Below, piece by piece: positions 65 to 11,515 of a DNA stretch of 26,520 bases. The stretch is from an uncultured Thiotrichales bacterium (GTDB taxonomy: Bacteria > Pseudomonadota > Gammaproteobacteria > UWMA-0217), in NCBI GenBank assembly GCA_964618535.1, contig CAZUAW010000004.1, positions 1 to 26,520 of the forward strand, given 5' to 3'. Position 1 is the stretch's first letter, and each line of letters begins with the position of its first letter. The notes beneath the pieces were generated by a model. The model was not told where the DNA came from, did no database searches, and saw nothing but the letters and a program-made list of their open reading frames with translations. The position numbers were made by a program, and so were the translations under genes.

Positions 65-544
65 TTAGGTGGTAACAAAAGAGATGTTACCACTACCGTA
101 ACGGGGGAAATCAATTCCAAAGCCATTGCTCTCAGGCGCTGTGTCGATCATTGCACGAGCATCTTCTGGCAGCTGTGATTCATCAGTGTACATTTTCTCA
201 AGCTTTAGATGCGGTGTGTTATCACCCATAAACATTCTAGAGCAGATGTTAATCAGCTCATGAACATTCTCTTCCATCGCAGGAGTTAAATCACCTGATT
301 CAGCGGCATCTTCAGCCCCACCAGGGGGAAGCATCATTAACGCAGAACCTGCAAATGCAGCAAATGGTGCATCACACATTGTTGCTGCAACAGGTTTTCC
401 TTCAGGGTCTACAAACAATCCATAAACTTTATTCTCAGACAATGGCTTGGCACTCGATTCTGTGACATCTAAATTATTACCATAAAGCATACCAAAAGAA
501 TTTAATAAATCTTTCGACTTTGGCAAAATATAATTAGTGGACAT
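65..544 (-). CDS. CheC/CheX-like protein (putative CheY-P phosphatase), uncharacterised family
   Basis: 159 aa with SD AAGGAG before the ATG. Contains EENVHELINICSRMF, carrying the E-x2-N motif of CheC/CheX/FliY phosphatases. Lies directly downstream of a single-domain response regulator. Confidence 0.55.
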   Translation of the reverse strand: MSTNYILPKSKDLLNSFGMLYGNNLDVTESSAKPLSENKVYGLFVDPEGKPVAATMCDAPFAAFAGSALMMLPPGGAEDAAESGDLTPAMEENVHELINICSRMFMGDNTPHLKLEKMYTDESQLPEDARAMIDTAPESNGFGIDFPRYGSGNISFVTT

Positions 545-1087: not shown

Positions 1088-2194
1088 CTATTGCATTGCT
1101 ATCCTACCCAACGCGGCTTCTGCAATTTGAGACAGCGGAAGTACTTTGTCTACCGCACCTCTTTTTACAGCTTGGCCTGGCATCCCCCAAACAACGCTGG
1201 ACTCTTCATCCTGAGCAATCGTATACGCTCCAGCATCATGTAACTGCTTCATCTCGCGTGCACCGTCATCCCCCATACCCGTTAGCATAATCCCCAGCGA
1301 CTTTGAACCCACTGCTGTCAAGACCGACTCAAATAGTTTATCGACAGAAGGCTTATGACAATTAACTGGTGGGCCATCGTCCAAGTGACAAGTTAATTTA
1401 CCATCTATTTTCTTCACAGTAAGGTGCTTGTCTCCCGGTGCGATGTAAATATTCCCCGACATAACCTCTTGTCCTTGTTCTGCCTGATGAACGGTAACTT
1501 TACAAATTGCATTGAGTCGATCTGAGAATGATTTTGAAAATGCTGCAGGAATATGCTGCGTAATAACAATCGGTGGAGAAGTCTTTGGGAAAGGTGCCAA
1601 TAATTGTTTTAATGCTTCAGTACCACCGGTAGACGCACCTATCGCTATTAGATTATTCGACTCAAACAAGGAACGAGTTGATGAAAGCGAGTTTGTTACC
1701 AATTTTGGCTCAGGATTTATTACATCAGGATGGTAAGCTTTCACATTCGCTTTGCTGGCCGTTTTTACTTTAGAAATAATTTCAATGGCATAAGCATCCA
1801 TTGCTGTAATTGCATTACCTTCTGGTTTATGAATACACTCTACCGCACCAACTTCTAGAGCATCTAAAGTAACCGAAGCGCCTTTTTTTGTTAGTGTAGA
1901 AACCATCACTACTGGCATAGGCCGAAGTCGCATAAGGTTTTTTAAAAATTGAATTCCATCCATACCTGGCATTTCGACATCTAACGTTATCACATCAGGA
2001 TTATACTTCTTGATCTTTTCTCTCGCGTCAAATGCGTCAACTGCGGTCGCAACCACTTCGATACTCGGATCTTGAACGAGTATTCTCTCGATCACACTAC
2101 GCATTAGCGCACTATCGTCGACAACGATGACTTTAATGCGTCCCTCATTGTAATCTTCCCCCAAATAACCACTTATTCTTAACCCAGCTCCCAC
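1088..2194 (-). CDS. cheB: Chemotaxis response-regulator methylesterase CheB
   Basis: N-terminal receiver (IKVIVVDDS...TLDVEMPGMDG). Esterase triad motifs IGASTGG, TQHIP, LTGMGDDGA. Exact start uncertain (see findings). Confidence 0.96.
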   Translation of the reverse strand: MGAGLRISGYLGEDYNEGRIKVIVVDDSALMRSVIERILVQDPSIEVVATAVDAFDAREKIKKYNPDVITLDVEMPGMDGIQFLKNLMRLRPMPVVMVSTLTKKGASVTLDALEVGAVECIHKPEGNAITAMDAYAIEIISKVKTASKANVKAYHPDVINPEPKLVTNSLSSTRSLFESNNLIAIGASTGGTEALKQLLAPFPKTSPPIVITQHIPAAFSKSFSDRLNAICKVTVHQAEQGQEVMSGNIYIAPGDKHLTVKKIDGKLTCHLDDGPPVNCHKPSVDKLFESVLTAVGSKSLGIMLTGMGDDGAREMKQLHDAGAYTIAQDEESSVVWGMPGQAVKRGAVDKVLPLSQIAEAALGRIAMQ

Positions 2195-2246: not shown

Positions 2247-3077
2247 CTAAGATTTTTTATAGATTGTTTTACTCAGTAATCTAAATTTATCGGTAATATT
2301 ATTAAGTGTTTCGGAATGACCAATAAAAAGAGTTCCATCATCATTTAACTGCTTCGAAAAACGCTCGAATAATTTTGTTTGCGTAGGTGAGTCAAAATAA
2401 ATAACCACGTTGCGACAAAAAATCACATCAAATGCGCCTTGCATAGGCCATACTTCCATCAAATTTAATGGATTAAAAGTAATCAAAGATCTTATCTCTG
2501 GAGAAACTCTAACTTTCCCCTGATTATCACCTGCGCCTTTTTGAAACCAACGGTGCAACCGTAATTTTGACACTCCGGAAAGTCTATCTAGGTCATACAC
2601 ACCCAGTTGTGCATGTGTCACCATGGTCGTATCTAGGTCAGAAGCCAGAATTTTAAAATCCCAAGATTGAATATTGGGTATGACTTCTTGAGCGACCATT
2701 GCTATTGAATACGCTTCTTCACCAGAAGAGCATCCTGCAGACCAGATTCGTATTTTTCTATCTTTCCGACGCTGCTTGATGAGCTCTGGAAAAAGAGTGG
2801 TTCTCAAATACTCAAAATGATGTTCTTCTCTAAAAAAAGATGTCAAATTCGTCGTTATCAAATTTGAAAACTTTTCCAGCTCGGCAGCAGACCCTTTCTC
2901 AAGTTCTTCCCTATAGTCTGAAAAACTGTTTAACCCAAGGTCTCGAACTCGCCTCGATAGGCGACCATATACAAGATCTCGTTTATTTTCCCCGATATGG
3001 ATACCTGTGTGAGTATTAATAATTTCTCGAAACTTACTAAACTCATTATCTGAAAACTCAAATGTAGCTGCTTCCAT
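2247..3077 (-). CDS. cheR: Chemotaxis protein methyltransferase CheR
   Basis: ITTNLTSFFREEHHF, IWSAGCSSGEEAYS, FDVIFCRNVVIYF, LFIGHSE motifs; SD GAGGA. Confidence 0.97.
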   Translation of the reverse strand: MEAATFEFSDNEFSKFREIINTHTGIHIGENKRDLVYGRLSRRVRDLGLNSFSDYREELEKGSAAELEKFSNLITTNLTSFFREEHHFEYLRTTLFPELIKQRRKDRKIRIWSAGCSSGEEAYSIAMVAQEVIPNIQSWDFKILASDLDTTMVTHAQLGVYDLDRLSGVSKLRLHRWFQKGAGDNQGKVRVSPEIRSLITFNPLNLMEVWPMQGAFDVIFCRNVVIYFDSPTQTKLFERFSKQLNDDGTLFIGHSETLNNITDKFRLLSKTIYKKS

Positions 3078-3138: not shown

Positions 3139-3405
3139 TTATACCGCCAAACTATCAGTGCCTGTCATCGCCAAAAATCGATTCAGATTTTCAGAAACGC
3201 CGCTACTCTTTACCGAGCCACCTTCCGACTGAACAGACTTGGACCAGGCCATAAGCAACTGAATACTTCTCATATCTGGACTTTCTACTGAAGAAAAATC
3301 TAACTCTACGTTCACTCCATTTAGCGCGCCATCCAATAGATCGTCTTTAAGCGTGCTTAAAGTAGATGCAGTACATTTACTTTCTAGTTTTATTATATTT
3401 TTCAT
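3139..3405 (-). CDS. STAS-domain protein (chemotaxis-cluster type)
   Basis: Probable start ATG at 3405 (MKNIIKLES), 88 aa. VELDFSSVESPDMRSIQLL matches the STAS pattern lD-x-x-x-V-x-x-x-D-x-x-x-lQLL. Confidence 0.75.
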   Translation of the reverse strand: MKNIIKLESKCTASTLSTLKDDLLDGALNGVNVELDFSSVESPDMRSIQLLMAWSKSVQSEGGSVKSSGVSENLNRFLAMTGTDSLAV

Positions 3406-3524
3406 ATTTTTATTATTATTGATTAAATATCTTGAGTTAATGTACATTCCAGTAAAAATCACTGTCGATTCTCATCGCTTATGCCACGAAAACCGACAGC
3501 TTCATTAAAACTACTTGGGTTATT

Positions 3525-5801
3525 TTAAAAACTATTCCAATTAGCACTATCATTGACTGCAACAGGTTGACTGAAGTCATCACTCAATCCATTTCCTGAA
3601 CCATTCTTCACTTCATCTTCAACATCTCCAAGTAATGCTACAACCTTACCGGACGCCCTTTCGATGTTTGAATAGCGGTTGGTCGCTTCAGCATCATTCC
3701 CACCTTCTTTTAAGCCAATGATGTTTTTAATTTCGGCATGCATCTCGGCGTGTTCTTTTTCCAGCTCCTGCATTGCAGCAGAAGAGCCATACTTAGTCAT
3801 GCCATCAGAATAGATCCACTTACCTAAATCACAATCCCTGTGCGACACAGCTTGATCCATTGTCAATGACTCTTTGCCCTGCAAAAACCCTCGTATGCGG
3901 TTTTTCCATGAAAGATGCTTCGACTTAGCAGCGGCAAAATCAACCCCCCCAGAAGATTGGGGTGAAGCGGTTTCAGACCACGGTCGAGCTGCTGAACGTC
4001 TGTCAACAGAACTAGAAGAATGATTTCCTACTGATACTGAAAAGAAACTCATTTTCTCTGACAATGATTCAGACTCACTGTCCAGAGAAGCACTTAAGCC
4101 CGCTACTTTTTCGACCATTCTTGTATTTTGCTGGGTCATTTGATCCATTTTTAGCATCGCTTGATTGACCTGCTCTATGCCAATGGATTGCTCCTGGTTC
4201 GCTGCATCGATTTCAGAAATAATATGGCTCACTTTCTGAGATGCTTCGACGATTTCAGCTAGGGATTTGCCGGTGTTGTCTACTAGAGCCGTTCCCGCAT
4301 TCACTTTTGAAACACTGTCTTCAATCAGTTCTTTGATTTCTTTGGCAGCTTCTGCGCTACGTTGCGCCAGGTTTCTTACCTCTGATGCAACCACTGCAAA
4401 ACCTTTACCCTGATCTCCAGCATGCGCTGCTTCCACCGCTGCATTTAGCGCCAATAAATTGGTTTGAAATGCAATTTCATCAATCACACTGATAATGTCA
4501 GAAATTTTCGCGCTGGAGGTATTGATCTCGGCCATTGCACTGACAGCCGCCGAAACCACGTCGCCACCTTGTTCTGCCTTTAATCGAGCGTTGTTAGACA
4601 GTTCATTCGCCTGACGAGCATTTTCCGCATTGTGTCTAACCGTACCAGTAATTTCCTCTACGGCAGCGGCTGTTCTTTCAAGACTGGAAGCCTGCTCGGT
4701 GGTTCTTCTTTGTAGATCAATATTGCCAGTGGAGATATCTCTGGCACCTTCATGAACAGAACGAGAACTTTCTGAGACACTACCTAGCACTTCGTTTAAT
4801 TTATCAACACCATTGTTCAAGCCATCCTTAAGCGTTGCATAGATGCCACCATAGTCATACTCAATTTTCTGATTTAAATCGCCTCTGGAAATACTGCTGG
4901 CCACTTTTGAAGCTTCCGAGACGACATGTTCATTGACCGACAAGACATCGTTGATAACCTGCCCCAAAGACATCAAGTATCCCGTTTTCCCATCTAAAGA
5001 AATACGCTTTGAAAGATCTCCTTCAAGTGCCCGATCAGCGATTTTAGCAATTTCACTTTCAATTGCATTCTCATCAGTATGATCCTTCCATTCTACAAAG
5101 AACCCTATTTTTTCTCCCTTTGCATCAGTTAAAGGATGCGCTGTAAAACCGACATCTACATCACTGACAGAAAATTTGGCAGTATGAGAAGTAGTAAGAT
5201 TCGCTAACATACCTCGTTGTTTTTGTGGGTTTTTATGAAAAATGTCAATATTCGAGCCAACGAGGGTAGCAATATTAAAATTTGGAATTCCTTTCTGCAA
5301 TTCATTTTGAATATTACCGAACAACTGTAGTAAGGATGGATTAACATAGCTGATATTAAAATCTTTATCTGCCATCATAATTGCAGACTCAGCGTGATCA
5401 AGGGCCGTCTTGAATACCTCTGAGCTTCCTGCGACTAGAGATGCGTCAACAGCGTGACTAGATAGGTTTTTCATCGCTAACGACATGCCACCGTACAAAC
5501 TCCCTAACTCCTTAATATCAAAATCTTCAGATTCAATCTCAGCAGCAGACTTATTAAGCAACTCTCTAATCTCATAGGTTTCTGCGCCGATCCATTTTTT
5601 CACCTTGCTGAGTACCACATAGCTCATTGCGGCAACGCTTGCCCCGCTAACGATACCTGCCGACAACAACACCCACATAGCAGAAGAGCTTGCTGTAAAC
5701 AATATGGCACCAACCGAGAACACTCCTACAATTAATATAAACTGTGTGAGTGATAAGAACAGTGGTGAGATTTTGATATTTTTAATTTGATAGTTTGACA
5801 T
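3525..5801 (-). CDS. Aer2-like methyl-accepting chemotaxis protein: 2 TM - PAS(heme) - HAMPs - MA - CZB - pentapeptide
   Basis: Two N-terminal hydrophobic segments. PAS with [11 protein letters not shown] and VEWKDHT (Aer2-like His and Trp). Signalling tip [33 protein letters not shown] motifs [20 protein letters not shown]. Ends NWNSF. Confidence 0.93.
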
Positions 5802-5860: not shown

Positions 5861-6391
5861 CTAGTGAACTTTGACTGGCTGATCATCTAAAGCTTGCTCT
5901 GCTAATAACGTAGAAATATCAAGCAATATCACCATTTTTTCATCCAGCGTTGTGAGCCCTTTAATATATTCTGCATCAACACTGGCATGTACATTAGGTG
6001 GCGGCTCTATTGCTTCAAATGCAACGTTATAGACCTCTGCGACCGCATCAACAACGACACCAACGACCCGCTCTTCACCATCGGCAACCACTTTGATCAT
6101 GATAACAACGGTAGTCTCAGTAAAGGCTTTATGCGGCAAACTAAAGCAAGTTCGTAATTCGATTACCGGTACAATGGTACCGCGTAAATTAATCACGCCT
6201 AAAATATGTTCTGGTGTATTTGGGATAATCGTCGTACCGTCCCAGCCCTTAATCTCCTGCACATCGAGTATGTTAATTCCATACTCTTCCTCACCAAGGA
6301 AAAATGTTAGATACTGACTAGCATCTTCCCCTACACTCATTGCCATATCGTGAGTTTGATCTACGATTGAAGCATCCAGATTAAAATCCAT
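5861..6391 (-). CDS. cheW: Chemotaxis adaptor CheW
   Basis: QYLTFFLGEEEYGINILDVQEI and ILGVINLRGTIVPVIELR. ATG at 6391 preferred over GTG at 6397 because of spacing from SD GGGGAG. Confidence 0.96.
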   Translation of the reverse strand: MDFNLDASIVDQTHDMAMSVGEDASQYLTFFLGEEEYGINILDVQEIKGWDGTTIIPNTPEHILGVINLRGTIVPVIELRTCFSLPHKAFTETTVVIMIKVVADGEERVVGVVVDAVAEVYNVAFEAIEPPPNVHASVDAEYIKGLTTLDEKMVILLDISTLLAEQALDDQPVKVH

Positions 6392-6401
6392 TTCCACTCC
6401 C

Positions 6402-8531
6402 CTATGCAGCTTCCCGTTGCGTATTATTCACTTTCCCGGCTTCACCCAAGCGATTACGTATGAGCCCGGCAGCATCAATAATCAGCGCTACTTCCCCATC
6501 ACCTAGAATGGTGGCCCCCGAAAATCCATCAATTTTTCTAAAATTCCGCTCTATACTCTTAATCACGACTTGTTGCTGGCTGAGTAATTCATCGACAAAG
6601 AATCCCACACGTCTTCTTTCAGCCTCAACAACGACCAATAGCCCCTCATCAAAAACACAGCCGCTATCATCCAGACCAAATACTTCCTTGAGCCTGAAGA
6701 TCGGGATGTACTCGTCTCTTAATCTATATAGATCGGGTTGTCCCTTGTAATGCTTAACCATCTTTGGGTCGATCTGTAGTGATTCGTCGATAGATAGCAT
6801 CGGAATCACATACTGGCTATCTCCAACCTTGACTAATTGGCCATCAATAATCGCAAGTGTCAACGGTAAGGTAATTCTTAAAGTGCTTCCTTTTCCTTCC
6901 TCAGACATAACAAATACGTCACCCCCAAGGTCGGATATATTACGTCTCACCACATCCATTCCAACGCCACGACCTGACACATCACTAACAATTTCAGCCG
7001 TTGAGAAACCAGCTTGAAAAATTAAATTATTAATCTCATCATCATCGAGTTGTTGATCAGGAGAAACAACCCCACTTTCAATCGCTTTAGCAAGAATTCG
7101 TTGTTTATTTAACCCTGCTCCATCGTCAATTACATCAATGACGATATTTCCTCCTTCATGACACGCATTTAATTTCAGCAGACCTGTTTCAGATTTACCT
7201 GCTGCTAATCGAATTTCTGGTGTTTCCAATCCGTGGTCGAGTGAGTTTCTTACCAAATGAACCAATGGGTCACCAATTTTTTCGAGCACTGTTTTATCCA
7301 GCTCCGTACCTTCCCCAGTAATTACCAGTTCTACTTTCTTATTCAATTTATTACTTAAATCTCTTACCAGCCTGGGAAATCGATTAAACGAACTACTGAT
7401 CGGTAACATTCTAATCTGCATGGCTGTTTGTTGAAGCTCTCTAGAATTTCTTTCCAATTCATTAAGACCATCGCGTAGAACATCAATTTGTGCCATATCA
7501 AAATCTTCGCCAAACTGGCCCAACATCGACTGAGTAATCACCAATTCTCCAACCAGGTTAATTAGCGCATCTATCTTACTGATTGATACTCGTATCGAAC
7601 CTTCGGGTTTTCCAGCCGTCTTCTTGGCAACTGACTTTACAGATTTTTCCACAGCGTCAGTTTCAACTTTTGCTGGTGACGAAACACCCTTTGGAGTGAG
7701 TTCTTCAGGCTGTACAATTACCTGCGATACTGCTTCATCTTGAGGCTGATTTTTATTTTGTTCTGTTGGCTCTATCCTGCTACTTGAAGTTTCGACTACA
7801 CTCCCTTGCGTGTCGTTAAGTGCGGTGATTTCTATATCAGAATCACTATCTACCCAGGAAAAAATATCCTTAATTCTCTGTAACTTAATATTTCCCAGTA
7901 ATATTGCATTCCAACTTAAATGTAACTGTTCAGGATTCAAGTCTTTTAACGCGGGCACATTATCTGTTCCACAAGTCACCTTAAGATCACCCAGATCAGA
8001 CAGTGCTTCAAATACAGCCAATGGGTCCAATCCTTTTTGGATCGCATCAATACCAGGGGAAAATTTAATTCTCCAACCTTCGTCAGTTGCGTCTGAATCA
8101 ACGTCATGAGATTGATTCTCCACAACACTAGAAGACTCGTCACCCTTATCTTCAAGCATCTGCTCCAAACGCTTTTTTAAATTTGAAACTCGGGCAGAAT
8201 CTATTGCTTCTTCGTCCTTTGTGGCGTTAATCATTTCAGTTAAACAATCAACCGATTCAAGTAACAAATCTACCGCAGACGTAGTGACATCTCTATCACC
8301 GGAACGCATTTGATCTAACAGCGTTTCCATCACATGTGTAAAACTAGCAATTTCGTTAAAATCAAATGTGGCAGAACCTCCTTTAATAGAATGTGCTGCG
8401 CGGAAGATGGTATTAATTTCCTCCATATCCGCTGAACCTGGTGCTAGCGCAAGCAAACCAGACTCCATAATTTCAAGCCCTTCAAAACACTCTTCAAAGA
8501 ACACTTCGTAAAATTCTGATAAATCGGACAT
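6402..8531 (-). CDS. cheA: Chemotaxis histidine kinase CheA
   Basis: HPt IFRAAHSIKGG; dimerisation LINLVGELVITQSML; HATPase HLVRNSLDHG, DDGAGLN, SGRGVGMDVV; C-terminal CheW domain. ATG at 8531 has SD AAGGAG. Confidence 0.97.
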   Translation of the reverse strand: MSDLSEFYEVFFEECFEGLEIMESGLLALAPGSADMEEINTIFRAAHSIKGGSATFDFNEIASFTHVMETLLDQMRSGDRDVTTSAVDLLLESVDCLTEMINATKDEEAIDSARVSNLKKRLEQMLEDKGDESSSVVENQSHDVDSDATDEGWRIKFSPGIDAIQKGLDPLAVFEALSDLGDLKVTCGTDNVPALKDLNPEQLHLSWNAILLGNIKLQRIKDIFSWVDSDSDIEITALNDTQGSVVETSSSRIEPTEQNKNQPQDEAVSQVIVQPEELTPKGVSSPAKVETDAVEKSVKSVAKKTAGKPEGSIRVSISKIDALINLVGELVITQSMLGQFGEDFDMAQIDVLRDGLNELERNSRELQQTAMQIRMLPISSSFNRFPRLVRDLSNKLNKKVELVITGEGTELDKTVLEKIGDPLVHLVRNSLDHGLETPEIRLAAGKSETGLLKLNACHEGGNIVIDVIDDGAGLNKQRILAKAIESGVVSPDQQLDDDEINNLIFQAGFSTAEIVSDVSGRGVGMDVVRRNISDLGGDVFVMSEEGKGSTLRITLPLTLAIIDGQLVKVGDSQYVIPMLSIDESLQIDPKMVKHYKGQPDLYRLRDEYIPIFRLKEVFGLDDSGCVFDEGLLVVVEAERRRVGFFVDELLSQQQVVIKSIERNFRKIDGFSGATILGDGEVALIIDAAGLIRNRLGEAGKVNNTQREAA

Positions 8532-8776
8532 AATTAACTCCTTGTCACTTAAGGTCAATCCCTTTTCTACTCTCAAATTCCGAGCAGAATTTACATTTGT
8601 TAAAATTAATCATAGTGAGAAGATAGTCTAATCTATTTTCTAGAAAAGCTGCCTTCTCACCACGTAGATTGTTAATCTTCTTTAGAGAACCGTCCATGTT
8701 GCGCTGGCTCTGTTTTCTCTACTGTCATTTTTTATTCAACTTCGTTTATAAAGCCCTTTCAATATTTCCCAGCACA

Positions 8777-11515
8777 CTATCCTGCTTTTCTTTGCCACGG
8801 ACGCGAAACACTTCGTTTATCATTGGTTGATAACGACTTGTTCTGATTGCTATGTGGATCCAATTTAAAATAAGCCACCAGATTAGATAGCTTTTGTGAT
8901 TCTTCCAAGAGTGAACCACTTACATCTGAGGTTTTACTCACCAGACTAGTATTTTGTTGGAGTGAATTATCAAACTGAATCACCGCGTTGTTAACTTGAT
9001 CCATGCCAATGGTTTGTTCTGCTCCTGCTGATGAAATCTCGTCCATATGTTGACTAACTTTAGAAACTGTTAGAATGATTTCATCCAGATGATGCCCAGA
9101 AACATCTACTAACTGAGAACCTTCTTCTATCTTATTAGCCGTATCTTTAATTAAAACATTAATTCGTTTTGCCGCTTCTGAACTTCTCTGAGCCAGATCT
9201 CTGACTTCTGTTGCGACGACGGCAAATCCACGCCCTTGCTCACCAGCATGCGCAGCCTCAACAGCAGCATTAAGTGCCAACAGGTTTGTTTGAAAAGCGA
9301 TTTCTTCGATAACTGTTGTAATATCCGTTATTTTTGCACTTGCCTTGTTAATCTCTGCCATAGCCTGAGTGGTGTTAAGAACAGCATTACCGCCTTTTTC
9401 AGCCTGATCCTTTGCTTTTTTCGCTAGTAGATTAGCCTCATCAACATTTTCACCATTTCGTCTAACTGTTCCTGTGATTTCTTCCATGCTGGCAGCGGTT
9501 TTTTCAATATTGTTGGCTTGCTCGCCAGTCCGTTGTTTCAAACTCTTGTTCCCGTCAACAATGTCACCGACATTATCGCGCATGCTCTCAGCAGAATGCC
9601 TTATTTTGCTAATGACATCTTTCAGCTGATCCACAGTCTCATTTGCATTTTGCTTTAATTCATTAAATGACCCTTGGTAAGTCCGAGATACAGTCTCAGT
9701 CAGTTCACCTTTTGCCAGCGCGCTAAGTACTCGGCCAACGTCACCAACGACTTGTTCATTAACATCCAACAAATCATTGATTGAACCAGCCAGTCTACCG
9801 GCAAAGCCATTACCTTCTTTCGCTATTTGCAATCTTCCACTTAAATTACCGCTCTGAGCCTGATGAACAATTTTGTTGATGGAGTTTTCTATTTTCAACT
9901 GCTCAGTACGATCATCCCATTCAAGTACAACTCCAATTTTATTCCCTTCATCATCCAGTATTCGATTGGCAGTAATACGGAAAGTTAAGTTGCCGATTTC
10001 TTCGTCTGCTACAGATGTTACACCCAGTTGCATTAGCTGATGTCTATTGAGCGATTTAATTGCTTTAAAAATATCAATACTGTTTCCAACCAATCCTTCT
10101 GATTCAAATTCAGACAACGCCAACTTAAACTCGTTCTGCCTAGCTCGAAATGTCGTCATTAAAGAACCATTCAAATAAATTATTTCGAAAGACGAATTAA
10201 TGACCATGACATTGGTTTGCACATTATCCAACGCCTGCTTTATACGTCCCGATTCAATGGATTTTTGGCGTTCTTCAGCAATCTGCTGACGGAGCTGGCT
10301 TTGCATTGAATCGAGCGATTTCAATAGTCTCCCTGTCTCGTCATCTGCACCAGGTTCAATAGTATTGGAGAAATTACCACCGGCGATAGAACGGGCAATG
10401 TCAGCTGCTTTCTTTAATGAACCAATAATTTGCCCTGACATCAGCCATGTCAGTAAAGAGACGAAAGCCAAAAACCCAATTCCGGTTATCACTGCCCGTA
10501 CCAGCTTTGTATAGTAAAGCGTACTAACATCATCCAGAGTAGCGTTGAGATGATCCGTCTGAAATTGAATTAATTCATCAAGGTCTAGGTGCAGACGATT
10601 TAGAGCTGGCATAACCTCCGTCTCCACAAGATACGCATCCATTCTCCATGTTTCACCACCATGTAATTTAATAAGCTCATTAGTCTTAAGAAAAACAGTC
10701 TGGGAAACTTTTTCTATACTCTCTAAAGAATCAACTTGATCAAGTGTCAAATCATCAGACCTCCCTTTAAGGCGTGACATATTTTGTTCAAAACTGATTC
10801 TGTAGGCATCCAATTCAACCAGAGAAGCCTCACTTCTAAACGCCAGAAAAGCACGTATCGAATTCATGATATTCGTCCAAGAATACCTCACTTCGTTAAT
10901 ATCATTTAAGATCTCTTTACGCAGTGGCGTAGCTTCTTCTTCCAACTCAGTAAAAAGCATTTTCCCAAGCATCTGCAATACTTCTTTACTACGTGGACTC
11001 ACTTCAGCTGCGGCAAGCTCTCTGGCTGGAAAATTCTTTAAATCATTCTCAGAAATTTGGATTAATTTCCCGTCCAGTTCTGAATATGCCTGCAAATTAG
11101 TTTGTAACGACTGAAGAAGGACTGAAGTTTCATTATTACCAGTGGAAATCAGAAGCGCTTCAATCGAATCCAATTCTTTCTCGAGCAGTTGAATCTTTTT
11201 ATGCGATTTTTCCAGTTGCGCTGGGGCTTTACTAAATAAATAAAATCCCATCGACCCTGACGATGCTTCCAACAATTCTTTTGCCTTATTTAAATGCATT
11301 AAGGCTGGCTGCACGTCAGTAACAAAATGATCAACCTGTTTATGTACTGTTGATAGAGCAGAAATTTCATCAAGACTGATAGAGACGATAGCAATGGCAG
11401 TCACCGAAAAACTAATCCAGAGTTTTGATTTAAGTGACAATCCCATAATCCAGTTTTTCAATTTGTTTTGTTTTCCTTGAACGGTCAATTTTTGATTAGT
11501 GCTTTTTGTTTGCAT
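8777..11515 (-). CDS. Methyl-accepting chemotaxis protein: TM - ~290 aa helical periplasmic sensor - TM - HAMP - PAS - HAMPs - MA
   Basis: TM1 [18 protein letters not shown]2 [65 protein letters not shown]...VLEWDDRT, tip [30 protein letters not shown]. Confidence 0.93.

Follow-up and report, generated by a model that had tools for sequence, protein, structure and literature searches.

Aer2-type PAS-heme oxygen receptors and receptors with a CZB domain are the known chemoreceptors closest to P0001, the product of a gene in a chemotaxis (che) operon of an uncultured Thiotrichales bacterium. The operon lies on contig CAZUAW010000004.1 (assembly GCA_964618535.1), of which positions 1 to 26,520 were analysed (the window). 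Leptospira interrogans Aer2 (LiAer2) was reportedly described by Orillard and Watts in 2022 as a membrane-bound PAS-heme receptor. As cited in two reports (PMC10107281, PMC13401364) it resembles P0001 in being a membrane-embedded receptor with an Aer2-type PAS-heme unit, and it has been characterised. It differs from P0001 in its three PAS domains, and a CZB has not been reported for it. The Aer2 receptors of Pseudomonas aeruginosa (PaAer2, also McpB, PA0176), Vibrio cholerae (VcAer2) and V. vulnificus share with P0001 the Eeta-His, the Ibeta-Trp, the DxT motif and the PAS-diHAMP-36H order (PMC10107281), and likewise end in an xWxxF pentapeptide, the matching CheR being encoded in the receptor's own operon (PMC7184735). 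Unlike P0001 they are soluble, begin with poly-HAMP or an extra PAS domain, lack CZB and have Leu instead of Phe at the Hbeta position. CZB receptors have been reported as sensors of hypochlorous acid (HOCl), Zn and O2/reactive oxygen species (ROS) (PMC6715182, PMC8262984, preprint 10.64898/2026.07.03.735341). Helicobacter pylori TlpD and Salmonella McpA, in which CZB is C-terminal to the signalling domain and has a 3His/1Cys site as in P0001, are reported sensors of Zn and HOCl, and McpA also of O2/ROS (PMC6715182, PMC12871147, preprint 10.64898/2026.07.03.735341).

Soluble and membrane-bound CZB chemoreceptors with PAS or Cache sensors have been listed (Perkins et al. 2021, PMC8262984). Another survey found 184 receptors with both CZB and a pentapeptide, the pentapeptide following a C-terminal CZB in 39% (Ortega & Krell 2020, PMC7390727). 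A pentapeptide was counted in 96/130 Aer2-like receptors in a study that does not mention CZB (Ortega et al. 2020, PMC7184735). No description of an Aer2-CZB fusion was found when we searched full texts for the two names in combination. As argued below, P0001 can be read as a membrane-anchored O2 receptor of the Aer2 lineage, with CZB as a second input and NWNSF on an adaptation tether, that steers swimming. Taken whole, we judge this reading to be probable, if not strongly so.

An Aer2-type PAS core behind a putative membrane anchor

From N- to C-terminus, P0001 comprises a predicted transmembrane (TM) hairpin, a HAMP-like segment, an Aer2-type PAS domain, a di-HAMP unit, a kinase-control (MA) hairpin of 36H length, a disordered linker, CZB, a disordered tail and the pentapeptide NWNSF. 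Pfam matches above the gathering score were MCPsignal at residues 400-556 (E 1.6e-53), CZB at 629-695, PAS_8 at 130-178 and HAMP_2 at 283-336. The domain order given for this reading frame in the first-pass annotation (TM, PAS, HAMPs, MA, CZB, pentapeptide) was borne out by Pfam, by alignment to PDB entries and by an AlphaFold2 (AF2) model built from a 43-sequence family alignment.

Residues 130-337 were aligned without gaps with the PaAer2 PAS-diHAMP crystal construct 3VOL (E 3.7e-44), and the PAS domain was also aligned to 4HI4 and to the VcAer2 PAS structure 6CEQ. In the AF2 model the predicted local distance difference test score (pLDDT) of the PAS domain (~140-240) was 85-91. PaAer2 numbering was calibrated by two residues, His189 corresponding to H234 and Trp238 to W283. 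The first-pass annotation had pointed to a VEW motif and to an FHKNP motif with its His codon at 5235-5237, and both fell on the PaAer2 positions: FHKNP occupies residues 188-192, with Eeta-His189 encoded by that codon and opposite the FHKNP His of 3VOL, 4HI4 and 6CEQ, and VEW occupies residues 236-238, with Ibeta-Trp238 (5088-5090) 49 residues past His189, as in PaAer2. D240-H241-T242 was aligned to D-R-T of the PaAer2 DxT motif. A role in O2 sensing has been shown for His, Trp and DxT in each of four Aer2 receptors (PMC10107281). Conservation was counted among the 43 members of the CZB clade: the heme His was kept in 38/43, the Thr of DxT in 41/43, and the Ibeta-Trp was invariant (43/43). 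In the same-genus ortholog P0003 (L094, G001:C40:3928-6180) the heme His was gone (DIFNRDA), with the Trp, CZB and a DWDSF terminus kept. On these alignments the PAS domain is a probable b-type heme O2 sensor. Against the NCBIfam equivalog for Vibrio Aer2 (NF041847), of which only the core aligned, P0001 scored 487 bits and so stayed below the cut-off of 1200; this was expected because its N- and C-terminal layout differs.

At the Hbeta position P0001 has Phe219 (5145-5147), aligned to L264, the Leu that sits in the PaAer2 ligand cleft, so that this trait of the Aer2 family is absent. Across the clade this position was Phe in 25, Ile in 14, Val in two, Cys in one and Tyr in one, and never Leu; it marks a clade-specific distal pocket. 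In PaAer2 the Hbeta-Leu leaves the ligand cleft upon O2 binding. We infer O2 as the ligand, and a response of the Aer2 sign, for P0001. Either might differ if the PAS-heme sensed another ligand (nitric oxide, carbon monoxide, sulfide or the redox state of the heme) or signalled with inverted sign, which would make P0001 a sulfide or redox sensor. Replacement of the distal-pocket Leu across the clade, mostly by Phe or Ile, fits such a reading, as does a sulfur-oxidising host; LiAer2 is also reported to have a hexacoordinate heme and an opposite signalling sign (PMC10107281, PMC13401364). However, His, Trp and DxT, with their demonstrated part in O2 sensing (PMC10107281), are all kept in P0001, and we consider a ligand other than O2, or an inverted response, unlikely.

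P0001 was hydrophobic only at residues ~9-65 (Kyte-Doolittle windows >1.4), and AF2 placed there, with moderate confidence, helices 13-35 and 41-71 joined by a 5-residue loop. These data agree with the earlier proposal of two closely spaced TM segments with almost no periplasmic loop, and suggest a TM hairpin. In the HAMP-like segment that follows, AF2 predicted two helices, 75-87 and 101-135, and modelled the stretch between them with low confidence; for the region overall, confidence was low to moderate. Residues 75-135 gave no Pfam match, and the segment was visible by the AF2 model and a motif only. A short stretch of it stood opposite DEIGxL in the Pfam-detected HAMP of the longer relative P0072, in an alignment that was not significant; BLASTP of the N-terminal 135 residues against the anchor that follows PAS_3 in P0072 was likewise not significant (E 3). 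The di-HAMP unit (242 to ~335) was modelled with high confidence, and the MA helices (319-460 and 462-585) with moderate to high confidence. The MA spans were equal in length to those of the E. coli Tar and citrate-transducer models; by this length, rather than by a class HMM, MA would belong to heptad class 36H. The PAS-to-MA core was 461 residues long in nearly all of ~60 relatives.

CZB within the adaptation tether

The CZB domain (PF13682) of P0001 scored 49.5 bits against a gathering cut-off of 29.4. The CZB motif reportedly given by Draper et al. in 2011 is Hxx[WFYL]-x21-28-Cx[LFMVI]Gx[WFLVI]-x18-27-HxxxH, and it was intact in P0001 as H629LSW, 24 residues, C657DLGKW, 21 residues and H684AEMH688. 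The set of three His and one Cys proposed in the first-pass annotation as zinc ligands is thus present (H629, C657, H684, H688). The annotation had also included an 'HxxC'; its His (H654) is conserved but lies outside the four ligand positions of the published motif. All four ligands were invariant in 43/43 clade members. The pLDDT of CZB was 78-91 in the full-length model and 91 when the domain was folded alone. The top Foldseek match in the PDB was the DgcZ CZB (3T9O_B; probability 1.0, TM 0.63-0.65, E only 0.06). A phmmer search of residues 600-758 against PDB sequences gave no match, and a family profile found the DgcZ CZB at E 0.05 only, amid coiled-coil noise. A single Zn2+ is most likely bound by the P0001 CZB, with H629, C657, H684 and H688 as its ligands. 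Since the CZB ligands and the Ibeta-Trp were found in 43/43 and the heme His in 38/43, a combination of heme/O2 and Zn/oxidant inputs in one receptor is reasonable, and we regard it as plausible.

CZB was joined to MA by a disordered linker of ~35 residues, and residues 735-758 behind it had a pLDDT <50. Linkers of 20-45 residues, rich in Gly, Ser, Pro or His, occurred at this place in all clade members. Many long-form relatives (P0126, P0127, P0131, P0139, P0150, P0068) carried His-rich linkers just before CZB, such as NHNHQHS, VHQHTHA and HQHAHSHS, which might provide additional metal binding; the linker of P0001 has no such stretch. In TlpD, a soluble receptor that operates without a methylation system, the MA helix runs on into the first helix of CZB, and the CZBs sit astride the coiled coil (PMC12871147). 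P0001, in contrast, has a TM hairpin, a CZB on a disordered linker, a pentapeptide after CZB, and CheR and CheB. Because CZB hangs on this linker, the coupling mechanism of TlpD is not simply transferable to P0001. A TlpD-type soluble sensor was ruled out as a reading of P0001 by the TM hairpin and the flexible linker.

Sister-genus receptors that lack CZB and have the same hairpin tip, EAAHAG, end in MA-ERRSAERPW-~20 aa-AWEEF. In P0001, CZB stands exactly between the RRSxxRPW motif and the pentapeptide, which places it within the adaptation tether. The motif itself was present in 13/15 CZB-bearing and 2/105 CZB-less Aer2-like matches. In CZB-less relatives of the host's bacterial family it stood ~20 residues before the pentapeptide or at the extreme C-terminus (second operon receptor, C36 paralog). 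The terminal NWNSF named in the first-pass annotation was found at its place and matches the pentapeptide consensus. A C-terminal pentapeptide was carried by 104/105 CZB-less Aer2-like matches and kept in the orthologs G001-G004 and in 36/43 clade members, 31/43 having both the pentapeptide and the heme His. The tether resembles that of E. coli Tar/Tsr in its terminal xWxxF on a disordered tail and in the Salmonella-like beta-subdomain of the CheR that would bind it, and differs in being interrupted by a folded sensor domain. The best PDB matches of the operon's CheR were to Salmonella CheR (1BC5/1AF7, E 1.6e-61), compared with E 8e-46 for P. aeruginosa CheR1 and 5e-30 for B. subtilis CheR. 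Its beta-subdomain was aligned without gaps with that of Salmonella CheR, the loop 'GAGDNQG' standing opposite 'GTGPHEG', and by similarity CheR would pair with the pentapeptide.

The first-pass annotation had also suggested that CZB gates access to the pentapeptide. Of this proposal, the position of CZB inside the tether stood, and direct support for gating did not emerge. If CZB were a bead that sets the reach or availability of NWNSF by its Zn or redox state, the methylation level and not kinase activity would be redox-controlled. CZB does occupy the very place, with MA ending on one side and the pentapeptide on the other, that is filled by only ~20 residues of tail in sisters lacking CZB; both of its flanks are disordered, so that the most direct physical effect of a change in CZB would be on tether geometry; and both elements are kept together in 36/43 clade members. 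However, 7/43 members have a perfect, invariant CZB and no pentapeptide, and with ~21 disordered residues between CZB and NWNSF steric occlusion is not obvious. Control of adaptation alone through the tether therefore seems to us quite improbable. In a sulfur oxidiser the state of CZB could respond not to oxidants alone but to sulfide too, since sulfide depletes free Zn2+ and is able to modify Cys. We think it highly doubtful that CZB is a stimulus-responsive bead whose Zn/thiol state sets CheR/CheB recruitment and also tracks sulfide, the cell comparing O2 with sulfide or oxidant to hold an oxic-sulfidic interface. If this were true, the rate of adaptation, and not kinase output alone, would be under redox control.

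Relatives with the same architecture

CZB was present in 15 of the best 120 Aer2-like matches of a full-length search. A search with the CZB-tail segment yielded ~55 protein clusters (42-67% identity), almost all of them PAS-HAMP_2-MCPsignal-CZB. The short form (~760 aa, 13 clusters) had the EAAHAG tip and the RRSxxRPW linker motif. Most of the clusters were of a long form (~900 aa) with PAS_3, a TM pair, HAMP, FHKNP...VVEW, di-HAMP, MA, CZB and an EWEEF-type tail. All named carriers were uncultured (Methylococcaceae, Methyloprofundus, Thiotrichales, 'Thiothrix', Gammaproteobacteria). The long-form receptors of uncultured Methylococcaceae-like bacteria (P0126, P0072) shared with P0001 the core, the TM hairpin, the CZB type (45-57% identity), the flexible linker and the pentapeptide; they differed in the added N-terminal PAS_3, in an EAARAG tip and in that RRSxxRPW was mostly absent. 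On a 3.27-Mb contig, the P0126 gene stood in a stage-1 F7 cluster (cheY-cheA-cheW-receptor-cheW-parA-STAS-cheR-cheD-cheB-mcpA-like-STAS), for comparison with the published gene order of such clusters (PMC7184735). Unlike the operon of P0001, those of the long form also encode CheD, an additional CheW, a ParA-like product and a receptor of mcpA-like type. The 'Aer2-like' receptor of Methylomicrobium alcaliphilum imaged by Ortega et al. has a published order of domains like that of the long form.

Related CZB domains occurred in 33/400 genomes of an even sample of the class, and among the loci examined from this sample the combination of CZB, Aer2-type PAS and pentapeptide was clear in one genome (G227) and probable in another (G161). 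CZB followed MA in 0/80 loci listed from species-representative genomes, a listing swamped by the generic motif of methyl-accepting chemotaxis proteins (MCPs). In a quick maximum-likelihood tree of the core, which was unrooted, the short forms and the ortholog of G005 formed one clade (Shimodaira-Hasegawa-like approximate likelihood-ratio support 99). The presence of CZB needed at least four changes on this tree, and a single CZB clade was rejected at the borderline by the approximately unbiased test (p-AU 0.047). From the architecture alone, the short form may have lost its N-terminal PAS. CZB domains ~50% identical to the type of P0001 were also observed at the C-terminus of CheA kinases (Hpt-dimerisation-HATPase-CheW-CZB; P0202, P0207, P0209-P0214, P0216, P0218-P0221), several of them named Terriglobia.

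P0001 belongs to a recurrent clade, by which its reading as a unique chimera was ruled out. The first-pass annotation had allowed that the architecture might already be common, and as to commonness it is: besides the ~55 clusters and their F7 operons, PAS-CZB receptors and pentapeptides after CZB have been catalogued (PMC8262984, PMC7390727), and membrane-bound Aer2 is known. The Aer2-CZB receptor is a genuine, well-conserved variant that joins two known sensor kinds, and it is not unique.

The che operon, its host and the proposed signal route

The operon was encoded on a single strand in the order CheV-like, second MCP, CheA, CheW, P0001, STAS, CheR, CheB, CheY and a 159-aa open reading frame (ORF); the coordinates are collected in the table. 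The classical F7 order is cheY-cheA-cheW-aer2-cheR-cheD-cheB, accompanied by STAS genes, against cheV-mcp-cheA-cheW-aer2CZB-STAS-cheR-cheB-cheY-orf without cheD in the window. From CheA to the 159-aa ORF the operon was conserved in three genera of one bacterial family, in two of which CheY stood upstream of CheA; an upstream cheY was present in the relatives P0020, G004 and G005. Promoter and terminator scans flanking the receptor gene gave no excess over the shuffled expectation.

Features of the P0001 gene and its operon, in window coordinates
Feature	Positions	Strand	Residues	Remarks
159-aa ORF	65-544	-		after CheY
CheB	1088..2194	-		
CheR, cognate; pentapeptide-binding type by similarity	2247..3077	-		Pfam, PDB match
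STAS (anti-sigma-antagonist-like) gene	3139..3462	-		directly downstream of receptor
Receptor gene (P0001), whole	3525..5801	-	758 + stop	ATG with GGAG 7 nt upstream
C-terminal pentapeptide NWNSF	3528..3542	-	754-758	fits x[HFYW]xx[HFYW] (PMC7184735)
Disordered tail, ~21 residues	3543..3605	-	733-753	pLDDT ~34
CZB four-helix bundle	3606..3938	-	622-732	Pfam CZB, AF2, Foldseek
Disordered Ser/Gly/Pro-rich linker	3939..4031	-	591-621	pLDDT <50 at 592-618
RRSAARPW within linker	3978-4001	-	601-608	
MA (kinase-control) hairpin, 36H length	4032..4796	-	336-590	Pfam MCPsignal, AF2
Hairpin tip EAAHAG	4416-4433	-	457-462	
Di-HAMP unit	4797..5075	-	243-335	alignment to PaAer2 HAMP4-5 in 3VOL; Pfam HAMP_2
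Aer2-type PAS	5076..5414	-	130-242	gapless alignment to PaAer2 3VOL/4HI4, VcAer2 6CEQ
HAMP-like two-helix segment, link of TM2 to PAS	5415..5579	-	75-129	AF2 and motif
Predicted N-terminal TM hairpin, ~5-residue loop, no periplasmic domain	5610..5765	-	13-64	Kyte-Doolittle, AF2
CheW	5861-6397	-		directly upstream of receptor
CheA	6402-8576	-		upstream of CheW; sole classical CheA found in genome
Second operon receptor	8777-11515	-		4HB, HAMP, PAS, HAMP_2, MA

A STAS gene likewise followed the receptor in the operons of P0020 and P0126. The listed start of the STAS ORF in the window is GTG, and its orthologs aligned from residue 26 only; translation more probably begins at an internal ATG (MKNIIKLE...), which would leave an intergenic gap of ~120 nt after the receptor gene. 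The 159-aa ORF had no Pfam match and accompanied the operon in G002-G005, at 46-97% identity. CheZ was not found in the host's metagenome-assembled genome (MAG), which is 93% complete, and the ORF is therefore a candidate CheY-P phosphatase. In the second operon receptor Lys replaces the heme His, the Trp is kept and there is no pentapeptide.

The MAG measures 2.58 Mb in 419 contigs. It encoded FliG and flagellins, one CZB in all, and only four MCP signalling domains, three of them in Aer2-like receptors and one beside a ChpA-like kinase of ~1983 aa. The latter (G000:C8:15583-20681) was the only other chemosensory locus found and is presumably a Pil-Chp twitching system. In Pseudomonas and Vibrio the Aer2 (Che2/F7) system operates alongside a separate F6 motility system (PMC7184735), whereas a second classical CheA was not found in this MAG, 93% complete in 419 contigs. 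With one classical CheA, four MCPs and flagellar genes, the che operon is probably a flagellar pathway, and the output of P0001 is probably flagellar. RuBisCO and SoxZ were encoded as well, from which we take the host to be, in all probability, an autotroph that oxidises sulfur.

All three Aer2-like receptors of the genome (P0001, the second operon receptor and G000:C36:416-1990) and family relatives had EAAHAG instead of the near-universal EAARAG tip. Only two changes were needed on the core tree, which marks EAAHAG as a lineage trait; the tip may insulate arrays. This bears on a further reading, in which CZB would be a zinc-stabilised module that pairs with CZBs of its own or of adjacent dimers. 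With the EAAHAG tip it would help to build or segregate a separate array, or it would localise the receptor, and it would not sense a changing signal. CZBs of DgcZ form dimers by direct contact, and TlpD requires its C-terminus to be localised at the pole (PMC12871147, PMC13001251); flexible linkers permit pairing in trans, and the unusual tip residue is common to all receptors of the operon. Yet the other two Aer2-like receptors of the genome and the sister-genus receptors with the same tip lack CZB, so arrays in the lineage can form without it, and the invariance of the redox-active Cys suggests more than a structural use. We hold a purely structural or organisational role to be rather improbable.

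We return to the reading favoured above, that of a dual-input, membrane-anchored receptor. P0001 would be a homodimer of the Aer2 lineage, anchored in the membrane, in which a b-type heme on His189 binds O2 and Trp238 stabilises the bound O2. The signal would pass from heme and PAS through DxT, di-HAMP and the 36H hairpin to the CheA encoded two genes upstream. The sensor-less TM hairpin would serve as an anchor, long-form relatives having PAS_3 ahead of the same kind of anchor. In the tether between RRSxxRPW and NWNSF, CZB would supply a second cytoplasmic redox or zinc input through Cys oxidation or Zn loss, and would be coupled to the kinase. For adaptation by methylation, NWNSF would recruit the CheR of the operon and perhaps its CheB. 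P0001 would then probably steer the swimming of a sulfur-oxidising autotroph along O2 or redox gradients.

Several points weigh against this proposal. With ~35 disordered residues before CZB, no rigid path from CZB to the signalling bundle was evident in the model, unlike in TlpD (PMC12871147). By alignment, the Hbeta-Leu with which PaAer2 signals is replaced in P0001 and throughout the clade. Five of the 43 relatives, the same-genus ortholog included, lack the heme His, so that part of the lineage can do without heme sensing. The host genus has neither CheD nor the CheY that stands upstream in classical F7 clusters, and F7 is a provisional class for this che system. Finally, a second che system could be unassembled in a MAG of this completeness and contig number.

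Two points are new: CZB is tethered on flexible linkers, and the host has four receptors and one classical CheA. The biochemistry of Aer2 is well understood, yet the Che2/F7 pathway has no clear output in model species, and CZB receptors have been tied to O2/ROS taxis only recently. The present lineage pairs both sensor types in one protein, apparently on the host's sole flagellar chemotaxis pathway, and Aer2-like receptors appear to be the sole inputs to swimming in this host. A CZB within the CheR/CheB tether differs from the arrangement in TlpD, the only solved CZB receptor, and raises the question of a sensor domain that acts via adaptation rather than the kinase. The receptor and its operon offer a simple natural system for the combination of two redox inputs, and for what an Aer2-type array does when it steers the cell.

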